Of a DNA stretch of 64,000 nt, positions 3,432 through 59,220 are shown piece by piece. Both the position numbers and the translations under genes were made by a program. This stretch comes from Wenzhouxiangellaceae bacterium (GTDB taxonomy: Bacteria > Pseudomonadota > Gammaproteobacteria > Xanthomonadales > Wenzhouxiangellaceae). Each line of letters opens with the position of its first letter. Position 1 is the stretch's first letter. The stretch spans positions 869,472 to 933,471 of the forward strand of contig CBDDGP010000003.1 in the NCBI GenBank assembly GCA_965227925.1, in the 5' to 3' direction. Below the pieces are notes generated by a model. The model was not told the DNA's origin and searched no databases. It worked only from the letters and a program-made list of their open reading frames with translations.

Positions 3432-5407
3432 CGATCCGACTCGGCGCTTCGACCACCGGCTTCGTGCTGGCCGCGTTCCTGGTCGCGGCCGGCCCGCACC
3501 TGCTGGCGATGCCCGCCTGGCTCGGTGCGTTCGTCCTGATCGCGGCCGCCTGGCGGGGGGCGGCGGAGCTGCGTGGCTGGCGACCGCCCGGCCGCCTGGT
3601 CCGGATCGGTGTGACCTTCCTCGGGCTGGGCCTGGTCATCGCGGCGTACGGTACGCTCTGGGGTCGACGGGCGGCCACGGCGCTGCTGTGCGTGATGCTG
3701 GCGTCGAAGCTGCTGGAGATGTACCGCCTTCGCGACGGACGGATGGTTGCCGCGCTGTCGTTCTTCCTGGTCGCCACCCAGTTCCTGTTCAGCCAACGCC
3801 TGGATCTCGTGATCTGGCTGCTGGTCGCGTGCTGGCTCGCCACGGTCGCGCTGCTGCGCATCCAGCGCGACGAGGATGCGCCCCGCGCCGGTCCGGGACG
3901 GCCCCTCGGCGTTCCAGCGCGCGACATGGTCCGGGGCGCGACCGCGATGATCCTGCTGGCGCTGCCCTTCGCGCTGATCCTGTTCGTGTTGTTTCCGCGC
4001 CTGGCCTCGCCGTTGTGGGGGCTGCCCGAGGAGGCACTGGACGGCCGCACGGGGCTGTCCGACGAGATGTCCGTGGGCGAGATCGCCAGCCTGTTCGAGG
4101 ACGACAGCCCGGCATTCCGGGTCACATTCCAGGGCGAGCGTCCGCCGCGCTCGGAACTGTACTGGCGCGGTCCGGTGCTCTGGCGCTTCGATGGCCGCAC
4201 CTGGACCCGCGTGTTCTACGTCAACCAGGCACCCGAGCGCGTGCCGCAGGTCGGCCCCGGCGCGCTGCGCTACACGGTGCAGATCGAACCCACGGAACGG
4301 CACTGGCTGTTCGCGCTGGACTATCCGGCCCGATGGCCGGACAAGGTGCGGGTCTCGATGGCCTTCGAGATGCGGCGCGACGAACCGCTGACCGGCCTCA
4401 CGCCGTACAGCGTGATCAGCCAGACCGACTTCGTCGATTCGCCCACCCTGTTGCCGCTGTACCGCAACCTGGCGCTGGACCTGCCGGAGGGCAGCAACCC
4501 CCGAACGCGCCAGCGCGCACTCGAGCTCCGGGAACGGTTTCCCGACGACGACGCGGCGCTGATCGACGAGGTCCTGCGCTGGTTCAACGAGGGTCCGTTC
4601 TACTACAGCCTGGACACGGCGCCGCTCGGCCGCCACGGCGCCGACGAGTTCCTGTTCGATCTGCGCACCGGCTACTGCGAGTACTACGCATCGGCCTTCG
4701 CCGTGCTGATGCGCCACGCCGGCATTCCGACCCGGGACGTGACCGGCTACCAGGGCGGCTACTGGCAATCCTCCGACGAATATCTGCTGGTCAGGAACTC
4801 CGACGCGCACGCCTGGACCGAGGTGTGGCTGGAAGGTCGCGGCTGGACGCGGGTCGATCCCACCTCCGCGGTCTCGCCGGCACGCATCCTCGACGGCGCA
4901 CGAAGCGCGCTGCCCGGCGCGGGCGGCTGGTTGAACGCCGACTGGGCGTTCCAGCTGCGGAACCAGTACGACCGCCTGCAGAATCTCTGGAATCGCTGGG
5001 TTCTCGGCTTCGATGCCGAGCGCCAGGAATCGATGCTCCGAACCCTCGGCCTGCAGACGCTGGGCCTGGCCGGCCAGGCGGCCCTGATGGTCGCGGCGAT
5101 TCTCCTGCTTGCGCCGCTGGCCTGGTGGCTGCGCGGTCTGCTCGCCGGGTCCCGGCGCGACCGCGATCCTCTGCGCCTCGCGTGGCGGCGGGTCGAACGC
5201 CGCGTCGGTCGCAAGGGCGCGCCCCGGCGCACCGGCGAAACGGTACGCGAATGGACGCCTCGTGCCGCGCTCTCGATACGGAACCACGCCGAACTGGTCG
5301 ACCTGGCCGGTCGCTACCAGCGCCTGCGCTACGGTTCCGCCCCGGCCGAGAAGGCGACCGGGGACTTCATCGCGCAATGCCGTCGCTGGCGGCCGCGGTT
5401 CCGATAA
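3428..5407 (+). CDS. transglutaminase-like membrane protein (TgpA-like, DUF3488 plus transglutaminase core)
   Basis: The ATGA start/stop overlaps the DUF58 gene. N-terminal half is multi-TM. Cys-His-Asp core is GYCEYYASAF...HAWTEVW...WTRVDPT. Confidence 0.88.
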   Translation: MTIRLGASTTGFVLAAFLVAAGPHLLAMPAWLGAFVLIAAAWRGAAELRGWRPPGRLVRIGVTFLGLGLVIAAYGTLWGRRAATALLCVMLASKLLEMYRLRDGRMVAALSFFLVATQFLFSQRLDLVIWLLVACWLATVALLRIQRDEDAPRAGPGRPLGVPARDMVRGATAMILLALPFALILFVLFPRLASPLWGLPEEALDGRTGLSDEMSVGEIASLFEDDSPAFRVTFQGERPPRSELYWRGPVLWRFDGRTWTRVFYVNQAPERVPQVGPGALRYTVQIEPTERHWLFALDYPARWPDKVRVSMAFEMRRDEPLTGLTPYSVISQTDFVDSPTLLPLYRNLALDLPEGSNPRTRQRALELRERFPDDDAALIDEVLRWFNEGPFYYSLDTAPLGRHGADEFLFDLRTGYCEYYASAFAVLMRHAGIPTRDVTGYQGGYWQSSDEYLLVRNSDAHAWTEVWLEGRGWTRVDPTSAVSPARILDGARSALPGAGGWLNADWAFQLRNQYDRLQNLWNRWVLGFDAERQESMLRTLGLQTLGLAGQAALMVAAILLLAPLAWWLRGLLAGSRRDRDPLRLAWRRVERRVGRKGAPRRTGETVREWTPRAALSIRNHAELVDLAGRYQRLRYGSAPAEKATGDFIAQCRRWRPRFR

Positions 5408-8587: not shown

Positions 8588-8701
8588 CACACCGAGGCCA
8601 TCGTGGCGGCTGGACGTCGATCTGCAAGCCGCCGTCATCTCCGGGACCGGACCCGAGCCGTCGGGCACCGGCTCGACAACCCCGCTCTGGAGACCGCCCG
8701 A

Positions 8702-11188
8702 ATGACCCAGTCGCTCCCTTCGATGCGCCACCTGCTGATCGGCCCGCTGATCGGCCTGCTGACCAGCGCTGTGCTTGCGCCCTCCGCACTCGCGCAATGG
8801 AACCATCGATACGCGAAGCTCGACGACTTCGGTCACCACGTCTACCTCGAGCAGCACGAGCTGCCGATTCTCGCCCACGGCCCGACCGACCCCGCACCGG
8901 CCCCGGACAGCCGGCGACTGGCCTTCGCGGCGCAGGGCTGGCTCTGGGTCCTCGACCTGGAGACCGGCAACGCGACCCGGGTGACGGACGGGCCGCACGT
9001 CGACGCCCGGCCGCGCTGGTCCCCGGACGGTACCCGGCTGGCCTTCGTCCGCGACCGCGGAGACGATACGTCGATCGTGGTCCTGACGCTCGCCGACGGT
9101 CTGCAGCGCGTGATCGACACGCCCGGCATCGACCTGGACCCCGAGTTCCTGGCAGACGGTCGCGCGCTGATCCATAGCGCGGCGGTCGACGGCAGTCTCG
9201 AGCTGGTCCGCTTCGATCTGGAAACCGGCGAAACGGAAACGCTGACCGACCTCCCGCAGGTGGTGCGCAACGTTCGCCGGCTGGCCGCCGGCAGCGGCAT
9301 CGTCTACCTGCACGGAAACGGCGCACATCGCGTGCTGCGCGAACGCCGGTTCGGCTCCGGGGAGGACCGGATCGCCCATGCCGAAACCCTGACCTATCAC
9401 CTCACGTCCGACGTCCACCCCCGCCAGCGGTTGATCGTCTTCAGCGCGCCGATCGACAACGACTACCACCTGTGGACGATGGATCTCGACGATCCCCGAG
9501 TTCGTCACCGCTTGACGCAAGGGAGTCCGTACGCCACGTCACCGGCGTTCAGTGCCGACGGCGGGCACGTGTACTTCGTCGACCTTGGCGATCGACGCCA
9601 GTTCGGATTGAAGCGCATTGCGACCTACGGGGGCGCGCCCGAACCGGTCGACGTCCGTCGCTGGGACTACGGCACACCGACGGGACGGCTCGCGGTCACG
9701 GTCACCGACGAGAGTGGAGAGCCGGTCACCGCCCGGGTCTCGATCGTCGATCACCGAGGGCACCCGGTCGCATTCCACGAGGACGCGACCTTCTTCGATC
9801 CGCAGACCGGACGGCACTATTTCTATCTGCCCGGAACCACTCGCCTGACCGTACCGACAGGCCGCTACCGCATCGAGGCCGTGCGCGGCCCGCTGACGCC
9901 GCGGGTCGAAACCACCGTGGACGTCACCGAAGCGGGCGTGACGAACGCGAACCTCGCGCTGGACCCGCTCTGGAACGCCCGCGCCGCCGGCTACGTGTCG
10001 GCCGACCACCACGTCCACCTGAACGGCGACGGTCACCACCGCGCCGACCACGACGACGCCTTGCGGGCGATGTCCGGCGAGGACCTGGACCAGCTGGCTC
10101 CCCAATCCTGGAACCGCTGGGAGCGCCGGATCGATGCGGCTCTCCTGGGCTCGGACACGGTTCGCGACGGGCGCGCGGTCCACCAGGCCCAGGAAGTCCG
10201 CTCGCACTTCCACGGCCATATCGGGCTGCTCGGCGTCGATACGCCCTTCGCCCCGTGGTTCTTCGGTCCCAACAATCCGACGCTCGGCGACCCGGACAGG
10301 ACCAACGGCGACGTGATCGCCTTCGCCGAACGCACCGGCGCCTTTGCGACCTACGTCCACCCGATCGGCGATGACCGCGACCCGTTCACCCACCTCGAGG
10401 ATCGACCGATCCCGCTGGAACTGGTCTCCGACGGCGTGCTGGCCGAGCGCATGGGCATCGAGCTGGTCTGCGCGTGGACCAGCCCACTGGGCAATGCGGC
10501 GGTCTGGTACCGGTTGCTGAACATCGGCAAGCCCGTGGCTGCGATGTCGGGCACCGACGGCTGGGTCGATTTCCACCGCACGCCGGCGGTCGGCACCGGG
10601 CGCAACTACCTCCGCGTGCCGGAGAACCAGGCGTCGATCGAGGCCGTGATCGAGGCCGCCGCGGCCGGGCGCGGCTTCGTTTCCACGGGGCCGGCGCTGG
10701 TGTTCGAACTCGACGACGGTGCGCAGCCCGGTGGGGTTACATCCAGCGGTCGTCGGTCCTGGACGGCGACCCTGGCCAGCACGACGGCGATCGACGTCGT
10801 CGAGATCGTCGTCAACGGCGACGTCGTGGAAACCGCAGAGGGCGTCGGCGACGGAGAGACCCGCGAACTGCGCGGAGAGGTCGACCTGCCCGAAGGTGGC
10901 TGGGTCGCCATCCGGGCCTACGCGTCGGAGCTGCAGGACGATGCGTGGCCGACCATGCACGCCCGGCCCTTCGCCCACTCGTCGCCGATCTGGATCGGTC
11001 GGGTCGGCTCGACCGACCCGCAGGTCCGCACGGCCGCCGCGCGGGATCTGTTGCGAGCGGTGGAGACGTCGATTGCTGCGTTCGACGAAGCGTACGGGGA
11101 GGTACCGACGCCGAGGCTGGACGGGCGCCTGGACGACGCGCGGCGGCGCCTCGAAGCGATGATTCCCGTGGAAGAGCCGTCACAGTAG
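8702..11188 (+). CDS. secreted TolB-like beta-propeller protein fused to a CehA/McbA-type (PHP-like) metallohydrolase domain
   Basis: Signal peptide ...AVLAPSALAQ. Repeated PxWSPDGxxLAF-type propeller blades. The later ADHHVHLNGDGHH metal-binding motif and the C-terminal region are typical of the CehA/McbA family. Confidence 0.7.
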   Translation: MTQSLPSMRHLLIGPLIGLLTSAVLAPSALAQWNHRYAKLDDFGHHVYLEQHELPILAHGPTDPAPAPDSRRLAFAAQGWLWVLDLETGNATRVTDGPHVDARPRWSPDGTRLAFVRDRGDDTSIVVLTLADGLQRVIDTPGIDLDPEFLADGRALIHSAAVDGSLELVRFDLETGETETLTDLPQVVRNVRRLAAGSGIVYLHGNGAHRVLRERRFGSGEDRIAHAETLTYHLTSDVHPRQRLIVFSAPIDNDYHLWTMDLDDPRVRHRLTQGSPYATSPAFSADGGHVYFVDLGDRRQFGLKRIATYGGAPEPVDVRRWDYGTPTGRLAVTVTDESGEPVTARVSIVDHRGHPVAFHEDATFFDPQTGRHYFYLPGTTRLTVPTGRYRIEAVRGPLTPRVETTVDVTEAGVTNANLALDPLWNARAAGYVSADHHVHLNGDGHHRADHDDALRAMSGEDLDQLAPQSWNRWERRIDAALLGSDTVRDGRAVHQAQEVRSHFHGHIGLLGVDTPFAPWFFGPNNPTLGDPDRTNGDVIAFAERTGAFATYVHPIGDDRDPFTHLEDRPIPLELVSDGVLAERMGIELVCAWTSPLGNAAVWYRLLNIGKPVAAMSGTDGWVDFHRTPAVGTGRNYLRVPENQASIEAVIEAAAAGRGFVSTGPALVFELDDGAQPGGVTSSGRRSWTATLASTTAIDVVEIVVNGDVVETAEGVGDGETRELRGEVDLPEGGWVAIRAYASELQDDAWPTMHARPFAHSSPIWIGRVGSTDPQVRTAAARDLLRAVETSIAAFDEAYGEVPTPRLDGRLDDARRRLEAMIPVEEPSQ

Positions 11189-11541
11189 GCCTGCATTCCG
11201 GGCTGTCGGCTGTGTGATCGCGAGTTCGCCGCTTTGCGGCTCGGTTCGTCAGGATTCGAACCGCCAGCCCGCTTCGTCATCCTTGAAGCATCTGAACGAG
11301 GCGGGATCTCCTGTTGATGGCGGAGAGGGAGGGATGGACTGCGCGCCTGCGGCGCTTGCCCTCCGCTGCGCTTCGGGTTGCTGCGCCCGCTGCGCGGGCT
11401 TGCATCGAGCTCGCCTTCGGCTCGGTTCGAACCCATTTGCGTTGCTTAGCCTTGTCGCGACCCACGGGGCGTGCATCTTGGGTCGCCTGCCTGCGTTCGT
11501 CCCTCCAGGGTTCGAACCTCCAGCCCGCTTCGCCATCCATG

Positions 11542-11570
11542 AAAAAACCCCGCGCAAGGCGGGGCTTTTT
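11542..11570 (-). terminator. duplicated copy of the tRNA-Ser rho-independent terminator
   Basis: AAAAAACCCCGCGCAAGGCGGGGCTTTTT has stem CCCCGC/GCGGGG with A- and T-runs on either side, so it is bidirectional. Confidence 0.6.
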
Positions 11571-11800
11571 CATGGATGGCGGAGAGGGAGGGATGGACTG
11601 CGCGCCTGCGGCGCTTGCCCTCCGCTGCGCTTCGGGTTGCTGCGCCCGCTGCGCGGGCTTGCATCGAGCTCGCCTTCGGCTCGGTTCGAACCCATTTGCG
11701 TTGCTTAGCCTTGTCGCGACCCACGGGGCGTGCATCTTGAGTCGCCTGCCTGCGTTCGTCCCTCCAGGGTTCGAACCTCCAGCCCGCTTCGACATCCATG

Positions 11801-11829
11801 AAAAACCCCGCGCAAGGCGGGGCTTTTTC
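11801..11829 (-). terminator. rho-independent terminator of tRNA-Ser
   Basis: AAAAACCCCGCGCAAGGCGGGGCTTTTT lies 5 nt downstream of the tRNA CCA end on the minus strand. Confidence 0.75.
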
Positions 11830-11834
11830 ATGGA

Positions 11835-11925
11835 TGGCGGAGAGGGAGGGATTCGAACCCTCGAACCGGGGTTACCGGTTAACGGTTTTCGAGACCGCCG
11901 CATTCGACCACTCTGCCACCTCTCC
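11835..11925 (-). tRNA. tRNA-Ser (anticodon CGA), 91 nt with long variable arm and encoded CCA
   Basis: Reverse complement is GGAGAGGTGGCAGAGTGGTCGAATGCGGCGGTCTCGAAAACCGTTAACCGGTAACCCCGGTTCGAGGGTTCGAATCCCTCCCTCTCCGCCA. Acceptor GGAGAGG pairs with CCTCTCC, the anticodon loop is CTCGAAA, and the T-arm is GAGGG-TTCGAAT-CCCTC. Confidence 0.95.
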
Positions 11926-12261
11926 GAAACTTGAATTGTAGTGATCAGATTGTCCTGATCTGCGGTCCGTTGGACCGCGAGACCGCCGCATGGACTGCGC
12001 AGCTGCGCTGCTTGCCCTCCGCTGGCGCTCCGGGTGGCTTCAACCGCTTCGCGGTCTTCGCATCGAGCTCGCTACGCTCGGTTCGACCACTCTGCCACCT
12101 CTCCGAAACTTGAATTGTAGTGATCAGATCGTCCTGATCTGCGGTCCGTTGGACCGCGAGACCGCCGCATGGACTGCGCAGCTGCCGCTTGTTCTCCGCC
12201 GCTCCGGGTCGCGATTCGCTGGCCGGAATCGAGCGGATGAATCAAGCTCGCCAGTATACCG
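11904..12261. repeat. 179-bp direct duplication covering the tRNA-Ser 5' part, its upstream region and a 91-nt insertion element
   Basis: TCGACCACTCTGCCACCTCTCCGAAACTTGAATTGTAGTGATCAGAT... occurs at 11904 and 12083. The first ~105 nt differ at one position that I can see. The second copy then degenerates. Confidence 0.85.
11935..11940 (-). promoter_or_regulatory. candidate -10 hexamer (TACAAT) for tRNA-Ser; an identical copy lies at 12114..12119 in the upstream duplication
   Basis: The minus strand reads CACTACAATTCAAGTTTC followed by GGAGAGG of the tRNA. No convincing -35 element was seen. Confidence 0.35.
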
Positions 12262-12341
12262 AAGTTGAAACGTTTCGGACACCCCGATGTGGCGGATCGA
12301 GGGTCGTAGAATCCGGGTTCCGGGCCCGGAGGAACGATGGA

Positions 12342-13049
12342 ATGACTGAAGCGCTGTTTGCCGAAGATGCCTACCTGACGCAATGCACGGCGCGGGTTGT
12401 GGAGGCCGGGGCCGAGGGGGTGGTGCTCGACCGGACCGTGTTCTATCCGCTCGGCGGCGGCCAGCCCGGCGACCGCGGCGTGCTCGAATGGGATGATCAT
12501 CAGTTGGCGGTGACGGACACCCGCCGGCGACGCGAGGACGGCGCGATCGTCCACGTTCCGGCCCGGGGCTCCGCTCTGCCGGCGGTGGATACGGAGGTCT
12601 CCGCGCGCATCGACTGGGCGCTGCGGCACCGCCACATGCGGATGCACACCGCATTGCACCTGCTCGGCGCGGTACTCGCCTATCCGGTCACCGGGGGCAA
12701 TATCTCCGCCGAGAAGAGTCGCCTCGATTTCGACATGGCCGATGCCGCCGACAAGGAGGCCGTGACCGCCGAAGTGAACGCCATGATCGAGGAGGCCCAC
12801 CCGGTCGAGTCGCGCTGGATCGACGAGGAGGACCTCGATCCCGGGCTGATCCGGACGATGTCGGTCAAGCCGCCGACCGGGGTCGGCCGGATCCGCCTTC
12901 TCGAGATTCCAGGCATCGATCTGCAGCCCTGCGGCGGGACGCACGTGCGGCGAACCGACGAAATCGGCCGTGTTGCCGTGACCCGGATCGAGAACAAGGG
13001 GCGCCAGAACCGCCGCGTTCACCTGGTTCTCGAAGACAGCGACGACTGA
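12342..13049 (+). CDS. alaX: alanyl-tRNA editing protein (AlaX-type, AlaRS second additional domain)
   Basis: ATG at 12342 preceded by GGAGG. Zinc motifs HTALHLL and CGGTHV are typical of Ala/Thr-tRNA editing domains. Confidence 0.85.
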   Translation: MTEALFAEDAYLTQCTARVVEAGAEGVVLDRTVFYPLGGGQPGDRGVLEWDDHQLAVTDTRRRREDGAIVHVPARGSALPAVDTEVSARIDWALRHRHMRMHTALHLLGAVLAYPVTGGNISAEKSRLDFDMADAADKEAVTAEVNAMIEEAHPVESRWIDEEDLDPGLIRTMSVKPPTGVGRIRLLEIPGIDLQPCGGTHVRRTDEIGRVAVTRIENKGRQNRRVHLVLEDSDD

Positions 13050-57286: not shown

Positions 57287-57331
57287 TGGTCGGAGCGGGG
57301 AGATTCGAACTCCCGACCCCCACAACCCCAT
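57287..57331 (-). repeat. displaced 3' half of tRNA-Pro (45 nt identical to 59144..59188), the distal att-type direct repeat of the islet
   Basis: TGGTCGGAGCGGGGAGATTCGAACTCCCGACCCCCACAACCCCAT is identical at both positions. It spans from the first anticodon-loop nucleotide to the CCA end. Identity breaks immediately 5' of this span. Confidence 0.9.
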
Positions 57332-57465
57332 CATGGCGCCCGATTAGACGTAACGCACTGATAATTAAAGGCTTTAATCTCCAGCTGACCGCCCAATACC
57401 GTGCAATTCCGTACATTGAGGATCAATAACTTACATCGCGATATGCTACCGGATTTCCGACCGCT

Positions 57466-58005
57466 CTATTCTCCATTTTGCAGTGTCATCGAGCTCTGAA
57501 TTGAAAATTCGCCGGGGGGCTTGATTCTTAAAAGCCCATGCTCACACCGAATCTTCCCGTCTAGATCGAGCAACCTGGCTTTGTTCTCACTCCGATTTCG
57601 GCTAGTGACCTTCGCGATACCGTCAGTTGTTACGAGGGTATCGCAGCCGGTTGATACGGCAGTCTGCACAACCACAGCATCAAAAGGGGTCAGCATGTGC
57701 CTCTGAGCCAGCAGTGCAGCTTCCTTGCATAGCTTCGTGTGGGCAGGTTGTTTGTAGAAAATGCTTCGATCAAAAAAACTGCTGAAGGCTTCATTTTGTT
57801 GTTCTCGATCAACAACTTGTGACTCGATTTCTCTCAAATACAAGCATTCTGCAATTACTACGGTTGGAAGAACTATCTGAATTTCGCCGTTCTCCGCGGA
57901 GTCAATAATCGTCTGAACGTGTTGAGCTACGGGCTGCCTTTTGGAAATCACATCCAAAATGACGCAAGTATCCAAGCACACGTTTTGTCGACTCTCAACC
58001 GCCAC
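57466..58005 (-). CDS. PIN-domain (VapC-like) putative ribonuclease with ~50-aa C-terminal extension
   Basis: 179 aa, GTG start preceded by AAGG. The four acidic PIN positions are recognisable: VCLDTCVILD, VVIAECLYL, TPFDAVVVQTAV and LVTTDG. It overlaps the upstream gene by 11 nt. Confidence 0.8.
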   Translation of the reverse strand: MAVESRQNVCLDTCVILDVISKRQPVAQHVQTIIDSAENGEIQIVLPTVVIAECLYLREIESQVVDREQQNEAFSSFFDRSIFYKQPAHTKLCKEAALLAQRHMLTPFDAVVVQTAVSTGCDTLVTTDGIAKVTSRNRSENKARLLDLDGKIRCEHGLLRIKPPGEFSIQSSMTLQNGE

Positions 58006-58780
58006 GCAATCGCCTTATGAGCTCCTGCGGGTCCACATCACCCGCAATGCGGAAATCCATCGCCTGCATCTCAGCTAGTGTTGGAAGCTGATCATCACTC
58101 GGTATGGGTTCCCAGCTTTCCACGGTCATTGAAACCGGGGTCCCATTTCGAGCATATTTGGCTTCTCCGAATACACGAATCCTCGATTTGATCAGAGAAC
58201 CCAACTCTTCGGCTTCGTCGGGATCGAAATAGCAGACGGTGGCCCGCGACTTCTGCACCGGTGTGTAGATTCCGAATTCGCTCTTGCTCCCGTGAACGTT
58301 AATCCTTTCGAGACTCCCTTCAAGTTCAGTGCGCTCATGCACAAACTCCGGCCCGAGGGCCAAGTCGATGTGCTCGATCAAGGAAGGGCCAATGTAGAAG
58401 AAACTACCGCTGGAATTCTTAATCCCGATTCGGTCGATCTTTTTGCAGGTAGTGGAGGCGACAGTTCGAATATTAGCGAGGCACCTCTCGGTGAAATGCC
58501 TTGGAGCGACACCGCCCGTTGAGATTGTTTCTACCCCGGAAATGAACGCTGAAACGATACTTGGATTCGTCGCTCCCTCCCGACCAATCCCTTCAAAGTC
58601 GGTAAAACTCGGATTGACTCGCTTAAGGTCACCAACTACCCAATCAACAGACTCGCCTCCATCTGATAGCTCTCTGTCCAATTCACGCAGGGCGACCAGG
58701 GTATGGCGCAGTACAGTCAGAAAAGAAGAGGCGTCAATCAATCCTCCCTTTCCTTCGATTTTCAGAGTCAGTTTCTCCAT
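57995..58780 (-). CDS. hypothetical 261-aa protein, upstream partner of the PIN gene (candidate antitoxin/sensor); no domain recognised
   Basis: ATG preceded by GAGG. Codon usage and G+C match the PIN gene rather than the host. It is far larger than a classical VapB. The sequence begins MEKLTLKIEGKGGLIDASSFLTVLRHTLVALRELDRELS... and ends ...DVDPQELIRRLRGG. Confidence 0.7.
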   Translation of the reverse strand: MEKLTLKIEGKGGLIDASSFLTVLRHTLVALRELDRELSDGGESVDWVVGDLKRVNPSFTDFEGIGREGATNPSIVSAFISGVETISTGGVAPRHFTERCLANIRTVASTTCKKIDRIGIKNSSGSFFYIGPSLIEHIDLALGPEFVHERTELEGSLERINVHGSKSEFGIYTPVQKSRATVCYFDPDEAEELGSLIKSRIRVFGEAKYARNGTPVSMTVESWEPIPSDDQLPTLAEMQAMDFRIAGDVDPQELIRRLRGG

Positions 58781-59143: not shown

Positions 59144-59220
59144 TGGTCGGAGCGGGGAGATTCGAACTCCCGACCCCCACAACCCCATTGTGGTGCGCTA
59201 CCAGGCTGCGCTACGCTCCG
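59144..59220 (-). tRNA. tRNA-Pro (anticodon GGG), 77 nt with encoded CCA
   Basis: Reverse complement is CGGAGCGTAGCGCAGCCTGGTAGCGCACCACAATGGGGTTGTGGGGGTCGGGAGTTCGAATCTCCCCGCTCCGACCA. It folds into a perfect cloverleaf with anticodon loop ATGGGGT. Confidence 0.95.

Follow-up and report, generated by a model that had tools for sequence, protein, structure and literature searches.

Small palindromic non-autonomous elements are a known kind of sequence, and several described systems come close to the one treated here. Palindrome-associated transposable elements (PATEs) of IS200/IS605 depend on a Y1 HUH transposase and single-stranded DNA (ssDNA); the repetitive extragenic palindromes and their composites (REP, BIME, REPIN) go together with RAYT transposases; the Rickettsia palindromic elements and the GC clusters of yeast mitochondria are selfish, small, GC-rich palindromes in tolerant spots, RNA genes included, with target repeats of 0-3 nt; and the non-canonical introns of archaeal tRNA genes, marked by a bulge-helix-bulge (BHB) structure, lie in the D- or T-loop (e.g. 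at 59/60) and have been proposed to transpose. The present report concerns a GC-rich hairpin element in a 64-kb stretch of Wenzhouxiangellaceae DNA (64,000 nt, hereafter the window), where copies of 91 nt split spare, truncated copies of a tRNA-Ser(CGA) gene between AT and TCGA (written AT^TCGA, the caret marking the junction). We classify the element as one of a known kind with an unusual target, and its reading as a whole as a non-autonomous, site-specific DNA insertion element has, in our estimate, a probability of about 0.5.

Hairpin elements in tRNA-Ser fragments of the window

The original prediction had placed a 91-nt element at AT^TCGA in T-loop-like and D-loop-like fragments; coordinates and junctions hold, the junctions recur in dozens of other genomes, and the pattern is far above chance. 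The single genuine tRNA of the array region is tRNA-Ser(CGA) (ARAGORN; Rfam tRNA, 60.3 bits). The tRNA gene and the element copies are as follows, and no further copy was found in the 64-kb window.

11835-11925, minus strand: intact tRNA-Ser(CGA), T-loop GGGTTCGA^ATCCC and D-loop GGTCGA^ATGCGG, both with the target motif and uninterrupted
11336-11426, minus strand: E1, 91 nt, at a T-loop-like site; folds on the tRNA-sense (minus) strand
11595-11685, minus strand: E2, 91 nt, 100% identical to E1, in the second 259-bp unit
11992-12082, minus strand: E3, 91 nt, at the D-loop-like site of an upstream pseudo-copy
12171-12261, minus strand: E4, outermost copy, marking the edge of the upstream array; truncated and decayed, end module broken (..AAGCTCGCC^AGTATACCG)
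11197-11246, minus strand: remnant copy with the variant end module GAGTTC-GCCGCTTTGCGGC-TCGGT at 11222-11245, an inverted pseudo 3′ end directly after it

E1 and E2 are flanked by TGGCGGAGAGGGAGGGAT, the reverse complement of the last 18 nt of the tRNA, on one side and by TCGAACCC on the other, so that the T-loop sequence they split is GGGAT^TCGAACCC; E3 lies between CGAGACCGCCGCAT and TCGACCACTCTGCCACCTCTCC and splits the D-loop sequence CGCAT^TCGACCAC. E1 and E2 had been described as essentially identical and are exactly so, and E3, described as equally long and related, is 83-84% identical to E1, with compensatory changes in the hairpins. The remnant at 11197-11246 is present as predicted, and the reported absence of terminal inverted repeats was confirmed, the ends GGACTGCGC... 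and ...GCTCGGT not being inverted repeats. Two details needed correction. Removal of the element on the D side restores 36 nt of tRNA (14 + 22) and not 37 nt, the duplicated upstream flank extending the identity beyond, and E4, counted as a full-length decayed copy, is truncated: its first 15 nt equal those of E3, ~45 nt are alignable, and its distal part continues into unique DNA.

On the tRNA-sense strand, (A)CCGA-hairpin-GAGCTC stands directly 3′ of ..TCGA and the tRNA sequence resumes with AT..., which puts the insertion point at T-loop positions 58/59 and at its D-loop equivalent, ..GGTCGA^AT... The truly conserved part is GAGCTC-[small hairpin]-TCGGT; GCCTTCGGC is merely the most frequent hairpin within it, others being ACCGCGC-TGC-GCGCGGT, GC-TAC-GC and so on. 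One to four extra GC hairpins lie upstream of this module, giving chains of 2-5 hairpins, size classes of ~28-30, 40-44, 69-84 and 91-92 nt, and an overall range of ~28-130 nt. A comparison across copies, as suggested with the original prediction, supports the hairpins: just 5′ of GAGCTC and adjoining it there are 56 distinct hairpin sequences, in which 383 of 420 pairs are Watson-Crick, so that structure is kept while sequence changes. When folded singly, as had also been suggested, the 91-mers do not outperform shuffled sequences on either strand (z from -1.8 to +0.7), and it is the comparison of copies, not folding energy, that supports the structure. Among distinct triloops, 65 of 109 are of the form GNA on the tRNA-sense strand, against 2 on the opposite strand, and 22 of the 37 non-Watson-Crick pairs are G.A or A.G on the tRNA-sense strand. 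By these loop and mismatch statistics the tRNA-sense strand is the folding strand. The GC skew on the plus strand is negative throughout the window, by which the tRNA-sense strand would probably also be the lagging-strand template.

The copies are embedded in tandem arrays of 259-bp units downstream and 179-bp units upstream of the tRNA, the units of which are 99-100% identical. Their other parts are:

11318-11335, minus strand: copy of the final 18 nt of the tRNA (positions 59-76), forming the long arm of downstream unit 1; second copy at 11577-11594
11427-11434, minus strand: 8-nt short arm TCGAACCC (tRNA positions 51-58); second copy at 11686-11693
11506-11543, plus strand: inverted pseudo T-arm and acceptor end CAGGGTTCGAACCTCCAGCCCGCTTCGCCA; further copies at 11250-11287 and 11765-11802
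11548-11564, no strand assigned: terminator-like hairpin CCCCGCGCAAGGCGGGG with A/T runs on both sides; computed match on the plus strand only
12083-12170, minus strand: upstream pseudo-copy unit S2
11978-11991, minus strand: 14-nt piece ATGCGGCGGTCTCG (tRNA 23-36, tRNA sense) after E3, followed by the hairpin CGGTCCAACGGACCG

The inverted pseudo T-arm and acceptor end, together with the terminator, forms a long palindrome with the tRNA 3′ end. The terminator-like hairpin, which by eye seems bidirectional, is repeated in each unit, and its copy at 11806-11822 serves the real tRNA. Three parts make up S2: the 5′ 22 nt of the tRNA (12083-12104), 52 nt of duplicated upstream sequence that include a TACAAT -10-like box (12105-12156), and tRNA positions 23-36 (12157-12170). 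When the first 15 nt of the neighbouring element are added, its alignment with 11903-12006 shows 99% identity over 104 nt. The TCTCG^CGG junction of the 14-nt piece after E3 resembles the 3′-truncation junction of full-length upstream copies at another locus, L030, and judged against that locus the piece looks like a secondary deletion between GGTCTCG and CCTCTCG.

The array region is bounded by the genes for a PD40-repeat protein (8603-11188) and an AlaX-like protein (12342-13049). The latter product is a free-standing editing domain (C-terminal part of tRNA-synt_2c plus tRNA_SAD) whose gene adjoins the tRNA-Ser array, and an AlaX-like neighbour is also found at the orthologous loci L001, L002, L010, L014, L026, L027 and L030. 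The Rfam model sX4, a Xanthomonas small RNA, gave a sub-threshold match (30 bits against a gathering score of 70) at 11771-11935 on the minus strand; it covers the tRNA and the terminator and probably reflects mere tRNA-like content of the model.

Distribution, target sites and signs of movement

Further copies, on which the proposal of an insertion element depended, are plentiful, the conserved 3′ end being present in more than 100 public loci (numbered L001 onwards, each an 8-kb piece around a match in a public assembly). The exact 21-mer CTCGCCTTCGGCTCGGTTCGA, which joins the conserved end to its flank, occurs in 41 loci, mostly isolates and metagenome-assembled genomes (MAGs) of Wenzhouxiangella and Wenzhouxiangellaceae, with some Bacteroidota. 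At nearly all 41 the flanks are GGAT^..^TCGAAC (T-loop-like) or GCAT^..^TCGACC (D-loop-like), in the reverse complement of the tRNA, and at nearly all an intact tRNA of the same kind adjoins: Ser (four anticodons), Arg, Gln, Glu or Tyr. When one genome per species was scanned with a pattern specific for E1 and E3, the orthologous locus L001 emerged, which has the architecture of the window with shorter elements. Its outermost piece resembles E4 (AAGCTC.CCAGTATA.CCGAA, by eye), and a run of N at 4317-4383 inside its upstream array makes one unit unreadable.

A looser census of the module, covering 303,580 nt of Wenzhouxiangellaceae DNA in 36 sequences (the window and 35 fetched loci), returned 63 true modules: TCGA comes next in 55, the D-loop variant TCAACC in 4 and a further element in 4, while the other pattern matches end in ..GGC inside coding sequence and are noise. 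All true copies in this family have a single orientation and abut a T-loop (TCGAAC), a D-loop (TCGACC/TCAACC) or another element. At tRNA sites, 59 of 59 copies stand after TCGA or TCAA in fixed orientation; the junction ambiguity is only 1-2 nt, and T- and D-loop sites show no target-site duplication beyond it. Occupancy is high: the extra copies of tRNA 3′ arms in the Wenzhouxiangellaceae loci are all preceded by an element end, bar three (L012 6360, L020 1258 and L140 2422) that we read as chance matches in unrelated sequence. The only 'empty' 3′ arms belong to other intact tRNA genes, to one inverted pseudo end in L111 and to an att-type tRNA-Pro repeat of the window (see below).

Without the flank constraint, a 19-mer matched at least 120 stretches. 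Matches in GC-rich Actinomycetota and the like were taken as chance because they lie in coding sequence and lack the following TT; among the matches listed, dozens in Bacteroidales, Rikenellaceae, Lentimicrobiaceae and Microscilla are true intergenic repeats. A Planctomycetota MAG (L126, 1538-2070) carries five copies of the 19-mer GAGCTCGCCTTCGGCTCGG in a 136-bp tandem repeat without following TT or tRNA context; this repeat may be unrelated and share the hairpin by chance. In Bacteroidota the unit is 28-30 nt, GGCTTCGCC GAGCTC GCCTTCGGC TCGG, often within short T-rich tandem arrays such as (ACCGTTT)n or (TTTCAGGG)n. These copies are intergenic and randomly oriented relative to the flanking genes (26/20 and 27/21), and the layout downstream of tRNA-Tyr is retained in two Bacteroidota MAGs whose spacers no longer align.

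No Rfam family matched the element (window at E<=10, 16 other loci at gathering thresholds), the only hits being to tRNA, and the weak sub-threshold ones (sX4, microRNAs) lie on the tRNA or terminator. Nothing relevant came from a full-text literature search with the module sequence and related concepts, viral contigs held no exact match to the module, and plasmids held none to E1 with its flanks. Judged from these sequences, the copies form an apparently undescribed family of very small hairpin-forming elements, common to Wenzhouxiangella-type Gammaproteobacteria and many Bacteroidota.

Several comparisons point to movement between non-homologous sites. L036, in an Arg-CCG T-loop, and L018, in a Ser-GCT T-loop of another species, are 94% identical, and L035 (T-loop) and L027 (D-loop) 91%; in the same comparison E1 (T-loop) and E3 (D-loop) of the window are 83% identical. 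Variants group by subfamily and not by site, orthologous sites differ in size class (window and L001; L012 and L015), and elements stand head-to-tail in tandem in L003, L025, L030 and L033. With many copies elsewhere, the same flanks, a fixed orientation and variants shared between non-homologous tRNA sites, there is good support for the proposal that this is a small non-autonomous insertion element aimed at AT^TCGA.

The geometry of the interrupted tRNA copies is regular. They are always truncated and always lie beside an intact gene. Upstream copies retain the promoter region, as a duplicate, together with the 5′ part, carry the element in the T-loop, the D-loop or both, and end ~7-14 nt past the T-loop site (read off the loci), where a GC hairpin comes next; downstream copies keep the 3′ end and terminator and, on the 5′ side, just ~5-11 nt. 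It is always the short arm that points toward the intact gene, and the opposite arm extends to the natural gene end. In Wenzhouxiangellaceae downstream units an inverted pseudo 3′ end stands between short arm and terminator, giving a direct-inverted-direct layout with junctions at palindromes. Upstream copies lack the acceptor 3′ end and downstream copies everything 5′ of position ~49, and removal of the element would therefore not yield a tRNA. ARAGORN calls a second tRNA-Arg(CCG) at L012 225-300 and at L015 3207-3282, whose 3′ end is borrowed from a part of the element, so that tRNA annotation may take in interrupted pseudo-copies by mistake. In L005, L008, L013, L014, L028, L033 and L034, copies lie ~100-400 nt from the first base of the contig (in 8-kb pieces), which suggests that element arrays break short-read assemblies.

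A second tRNA gene in the window serves as a control. The gene for tRNA-Pro(GGG) at 59144-59220 has the T-loop GAT^TCGAAC and no array; its 3′ part recurs as a 45-nt direct repeat at 57289-57333, with ~1.8 kb of lower-GC DNA between. This interval holds open reading frames (ORFs) of 179 aa (57466-58005) and 261 aa (57995-58780), with no integrase-sized ORF and no hairpin element, and the repeat looks like an ordinary att-type duplication around a small island that integrated here, or around what is left of one. By this comparison the Ser arrays are not ordinary att scars; it also shows that spare T-loops are not all occupied.

Explanations for the element

As a non-autonomous DNA insertion element, the sequence would enter between TCGA and AT of a T-loop or D-loop in one orientation. 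Because insertion into an essential tRNA gene would be lethal, copies would persist only in redundant, truncated tRNA copies. The latter may arise through tandem or snap-back duplication, the hairpin chain possibly provoking duplications in its neighbourhood, and units could then expand by unequal recombination or template switching into the 259-bp and 179-bp arrays. Mobility would run through single-stranded DNA of the tRNA-sense strand, the likely lagging-strand template, with catalysis in trans, most plausibly by a HUH/Y1 transposase of the IS200/IS605 or RAYT kind. Transposition through ssDNA, as in IS200/IS605 or REP, fits better than the alternatives because the element has no inverted ends, no duplication at tRNA sites, a fixed 5′ motif, a fixed orientation, hairpins on one strand, head-to-tail tandems and a folding strand on the lagging-strand template. 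We hold the HUH part of the mechanism to be less probable than a DNA element as such.

A number of observations weigh against this explanation. No transposase is associated with the element and no neighbour protein recurs in 102 loci (8-kb windows): all-against-all clustering of their 1493 ORFs brought up nothing but housekeeping genes in synteny (EF-Tu, IMPDH, AlaX-like and, in the tuf cluster, a Xer-like gene). The sole Y1_Tnp gene near a copy (L107 7131-7591, PF01797, E=1.4e-29; phmmer with an IS200 TnpA query) has flanking repeats of its own that differ from the element. An orthologous pair of empty and filled sites was looked for and none was found, so the case for mobility is drawn from distribution only; DNA runs of related strains do contain variant contigs at the locus, as Logan contigs too fragmented for reading empty and filled alleles. 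The non-tRNA copies in Bacteroidota are flanked by direct repeats of 7-10 nt, such as TTCGGATT, TTCAGGGTTT and TTGCGGATT (examples at L043 (reverse complement) ~5951, L050 1606, L061, L086 6948, L093 7181 and L117 2201), which IS200/IS605-type insertion does not predict and which may be target duplications, footprints or microsatellites that were there beforehand. In the long forms the left hairpin is unlike the right one, exact conservation of ~20 nt across two phyla is unusual for REP-like repeats, and about half of the copies start with G and not T after ..GGAT, so that a simple TT/AA crossover fits only part of them. Both the intact tRNA-Pro and its 45-nt repeat in the window carry GAT^TCGAAC and no element. 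Lastly, the exact E3 sequence occurs in RNA libraries, which makes a role at the RNA level conceivable.

The Y1 gene of L107 lies between its own inverted REP-like sequences (AGCCCGTAGGAC.. / ..GTCCTTTGGAC), with the hairpin element 200 nt downstream on the same strand. It was considered as the enzyme of the element, and its proximity was judged coincidental on account of the different repeats.

An RNA-level origin would make the element an intron-like or extra-arm insertion at the tRNA elbow (T-loop 59/60, variable part of the D-loop), or a part of functional chimeric pseudo-tRNA transcripts acting as decoy, processing signal or regulator. Both insertion points fall where the tRNA fold varies in length, it is the tRNA-sense strand that folds, its tetraloops include GNRA types, and the retention of the tRNA-Tyr arrangement in the two Bacteroidota MAGs with non-alignable spacers also speaks for such a role, as do the upstream copies that retain the duplicated TACAAT promoter region. 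One of these appears in RNA libraries: an exact 93-nt match to E3 with its adjoining pseudo-5′ fragment is present in saline-lake metatranscriptome contigs from two of four libraries at a depth of ~19, whereas depth is zero over the unique DNA at 12118-12340 in each of the four and ~0-11 over the opposite flank of E3. As the bodies of E1 and E2, which lie behind terminators like other downstream copies, are absent from the same libraries, the promoter-bearing upstream copy is probably transcribed; the contigs show neither strand nor ends, and carry-over of DNA is possible. The absence of E1 and E2 at the same time speaks against an RNA-level element. The intron-like relic considered in the original prediction is disfavoured further by the state of the copies, every interrupted one being a truncated pseudo-copy beside an intact gene, without part of the acceptor or the whole 5′ half, from which no tRNA can be made. 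We know of no splicing endonuclease in bacteria, and no Rfam ribozyme or intron model matched over the element at the thresholds given above, where no dedicated BHB search was made. The Bacteroidota copies are an ordinary intergenic repeat, and their random orientation together with the lack of an Rfam family favours a repeat at the DNA level. On balance we consider an RNA-level element unlikely.

Integration offers another explanation, in which the tRNA fragments are attL/attR-type repeats and the 91 nt a minimal integrated remnant, or a mini-circle moved by a tyrosine or serine recombinase crossing over in TTCGAAT (TT/AA). Integrases classically cross over in T-loops, and partial 3′ copies downstream of tRNA genes are what att remnants typically look like; in about half of the copies the same TT (AA) can be placed at both junctions, and the window does hold a real att-type duplication in the tRNA-Pro repeat. 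That repeat looks different, however, being a clean 45 nt with foreign genes between and no element. In the fetched loci the element has no recurrent integrase in its neighbourhood, and the repeats stand just 34-170 nt apart. The junctions share no overlap of 6-8 bp as tyrosine recombinases need, the TT rule does not hold for the G-starting subfamily, 3′-end integrases do not produce upstream copies with promoter and 5′ half duplicated, and the strong strand asymmetry of the hairpins is unexpected for a site recombined as double-stranded DNA; a recombinase scar of this kind thus seems quite improbable. Still harder to sustain, and in our view very improbable, is an origin as non-mobile filler, by template switching at the quasi-palindromic T-arm (GGTTCGAACC) and terminator, followed by local duplication and gene conversion among tRNA loci. 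The direct-inverted-direct downstream layout with its palindromic junctions, snap-back-like fillers such as CGGTCC beside GGACCG in L027, and the 99-100% identity of the tandem units of the window would agree with it, but the same ~20-nt module and whole subfamilies occur in unrelated tRNA genes of two phyla, many Bacteroidota copies are intergenic and away from tRNA genes, and the module is conserved with covarying hairpins.

Further candidates failed on one junction or another: cut-and-fill at a restriction site (TaqI/BstBI), A^T or GTTC targeting of the Helitron or IS91 type, a PBS-like stop of reverse transcription at position 58, and a tRNA-like gene on the plus strand.

A much bolder interpretation may be stated, which we think doubtful. 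The elements could be the smallest known (>=~28 nt) site-specific mobile family, spread horizontally across phyla and homing to the elbow loops of tRNA as a bacterial counterpart of the mobile non-canonical introns of archaeal tRNA genes; they would move by an unrecognised ssDNA enzyme or an RNA step, express functional chimeric pseudo-tRNAs (e.g. decoys or processing substrates) and drive duplication of tRNA genes.

Significance and comparison with known systems

If the favoured explanation as a DNA insertion element is true, an insertion element is aimed at one nucleotide position in the most conserved loops of tRNA, and its size of 28-130 nt would allow the minimal requirements for site-specific insertion to be tested. 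It would account for odd repeat arrays beside tRNA genes and for contig breaks in Wenzhouxiangella and Bacteroidota assemblies, and would point out one origin of tRNA predictions that are false or split. That Gammaproteobacteria and Bacteroidales living together in soda lakes have an identical module suggests that the element and its enzyme have crossed between phyla, and the arrays would offer a tractable bacterial system for the origin of T-loop and D-loop insertions in tRNA genes.

Compared with the PATEs of IS200/IS605, the element is alike in having no terminal inverted repeats and no target duplication at tRNA sites, in inserting just 3′ of a short motif at one end with strict orientation, and in its hairpins near both ends, its features on one strand and its head-to-tail tandems. 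It differs in that no parent insertion sequence or tnpA sharing its ends was found in the 8-kb windows of the fetched loci, in a hairpin that begins ~5 nt from the junction, in the unlike left and right hairpins of the long form, in the 7-10-nt direct repeats at Bacteroidota copies and in a target inside tRNA loops. The suggestion of a REP-type sequence that seeds rearrangements stands in part: the element shares with REP/BIME sequences short GC-rich extragenic palindromes, many non-coding copies per genome and local duplications and rearrangements, whereas in the fetched loci a GTAG-like head, inverted pairs and a RAYT gene between copies are all missing, the end module is exact across two phyla, and site-specificity for tRNA loops is not a REP trait. 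A miniature inverted-repeat element of a DDE transposon would differ in its terminal inverted repeats and its target duplication of fixed length, neither of which is seen at T- and D-loop sites. Remnants of integrase att sites are similar as partial direct copies of tRNA 3′ ends downstream of the gene, and differ from the present arrays, in which an element lies inside the fragment at a fixed nucleotide, 5′ duplicates stand upstream and no integrase is nearby. The Rickettsia palindromic elements and mitochondrial GC clusters resemble the element in size, GC content and their choice of tolerant spots, and differ in sequence, in hosts and in not being specific for one tRNA loop motif. The archaeal non-canonical tRNA introns, finally, are alike as related short insertions across tRNA genes whose similarity between sites suggests movement; the element treated here differs from them in occurring in bacteria, in truncated pseudogenes beside intact genes and also in ordinary intergenic DNA.

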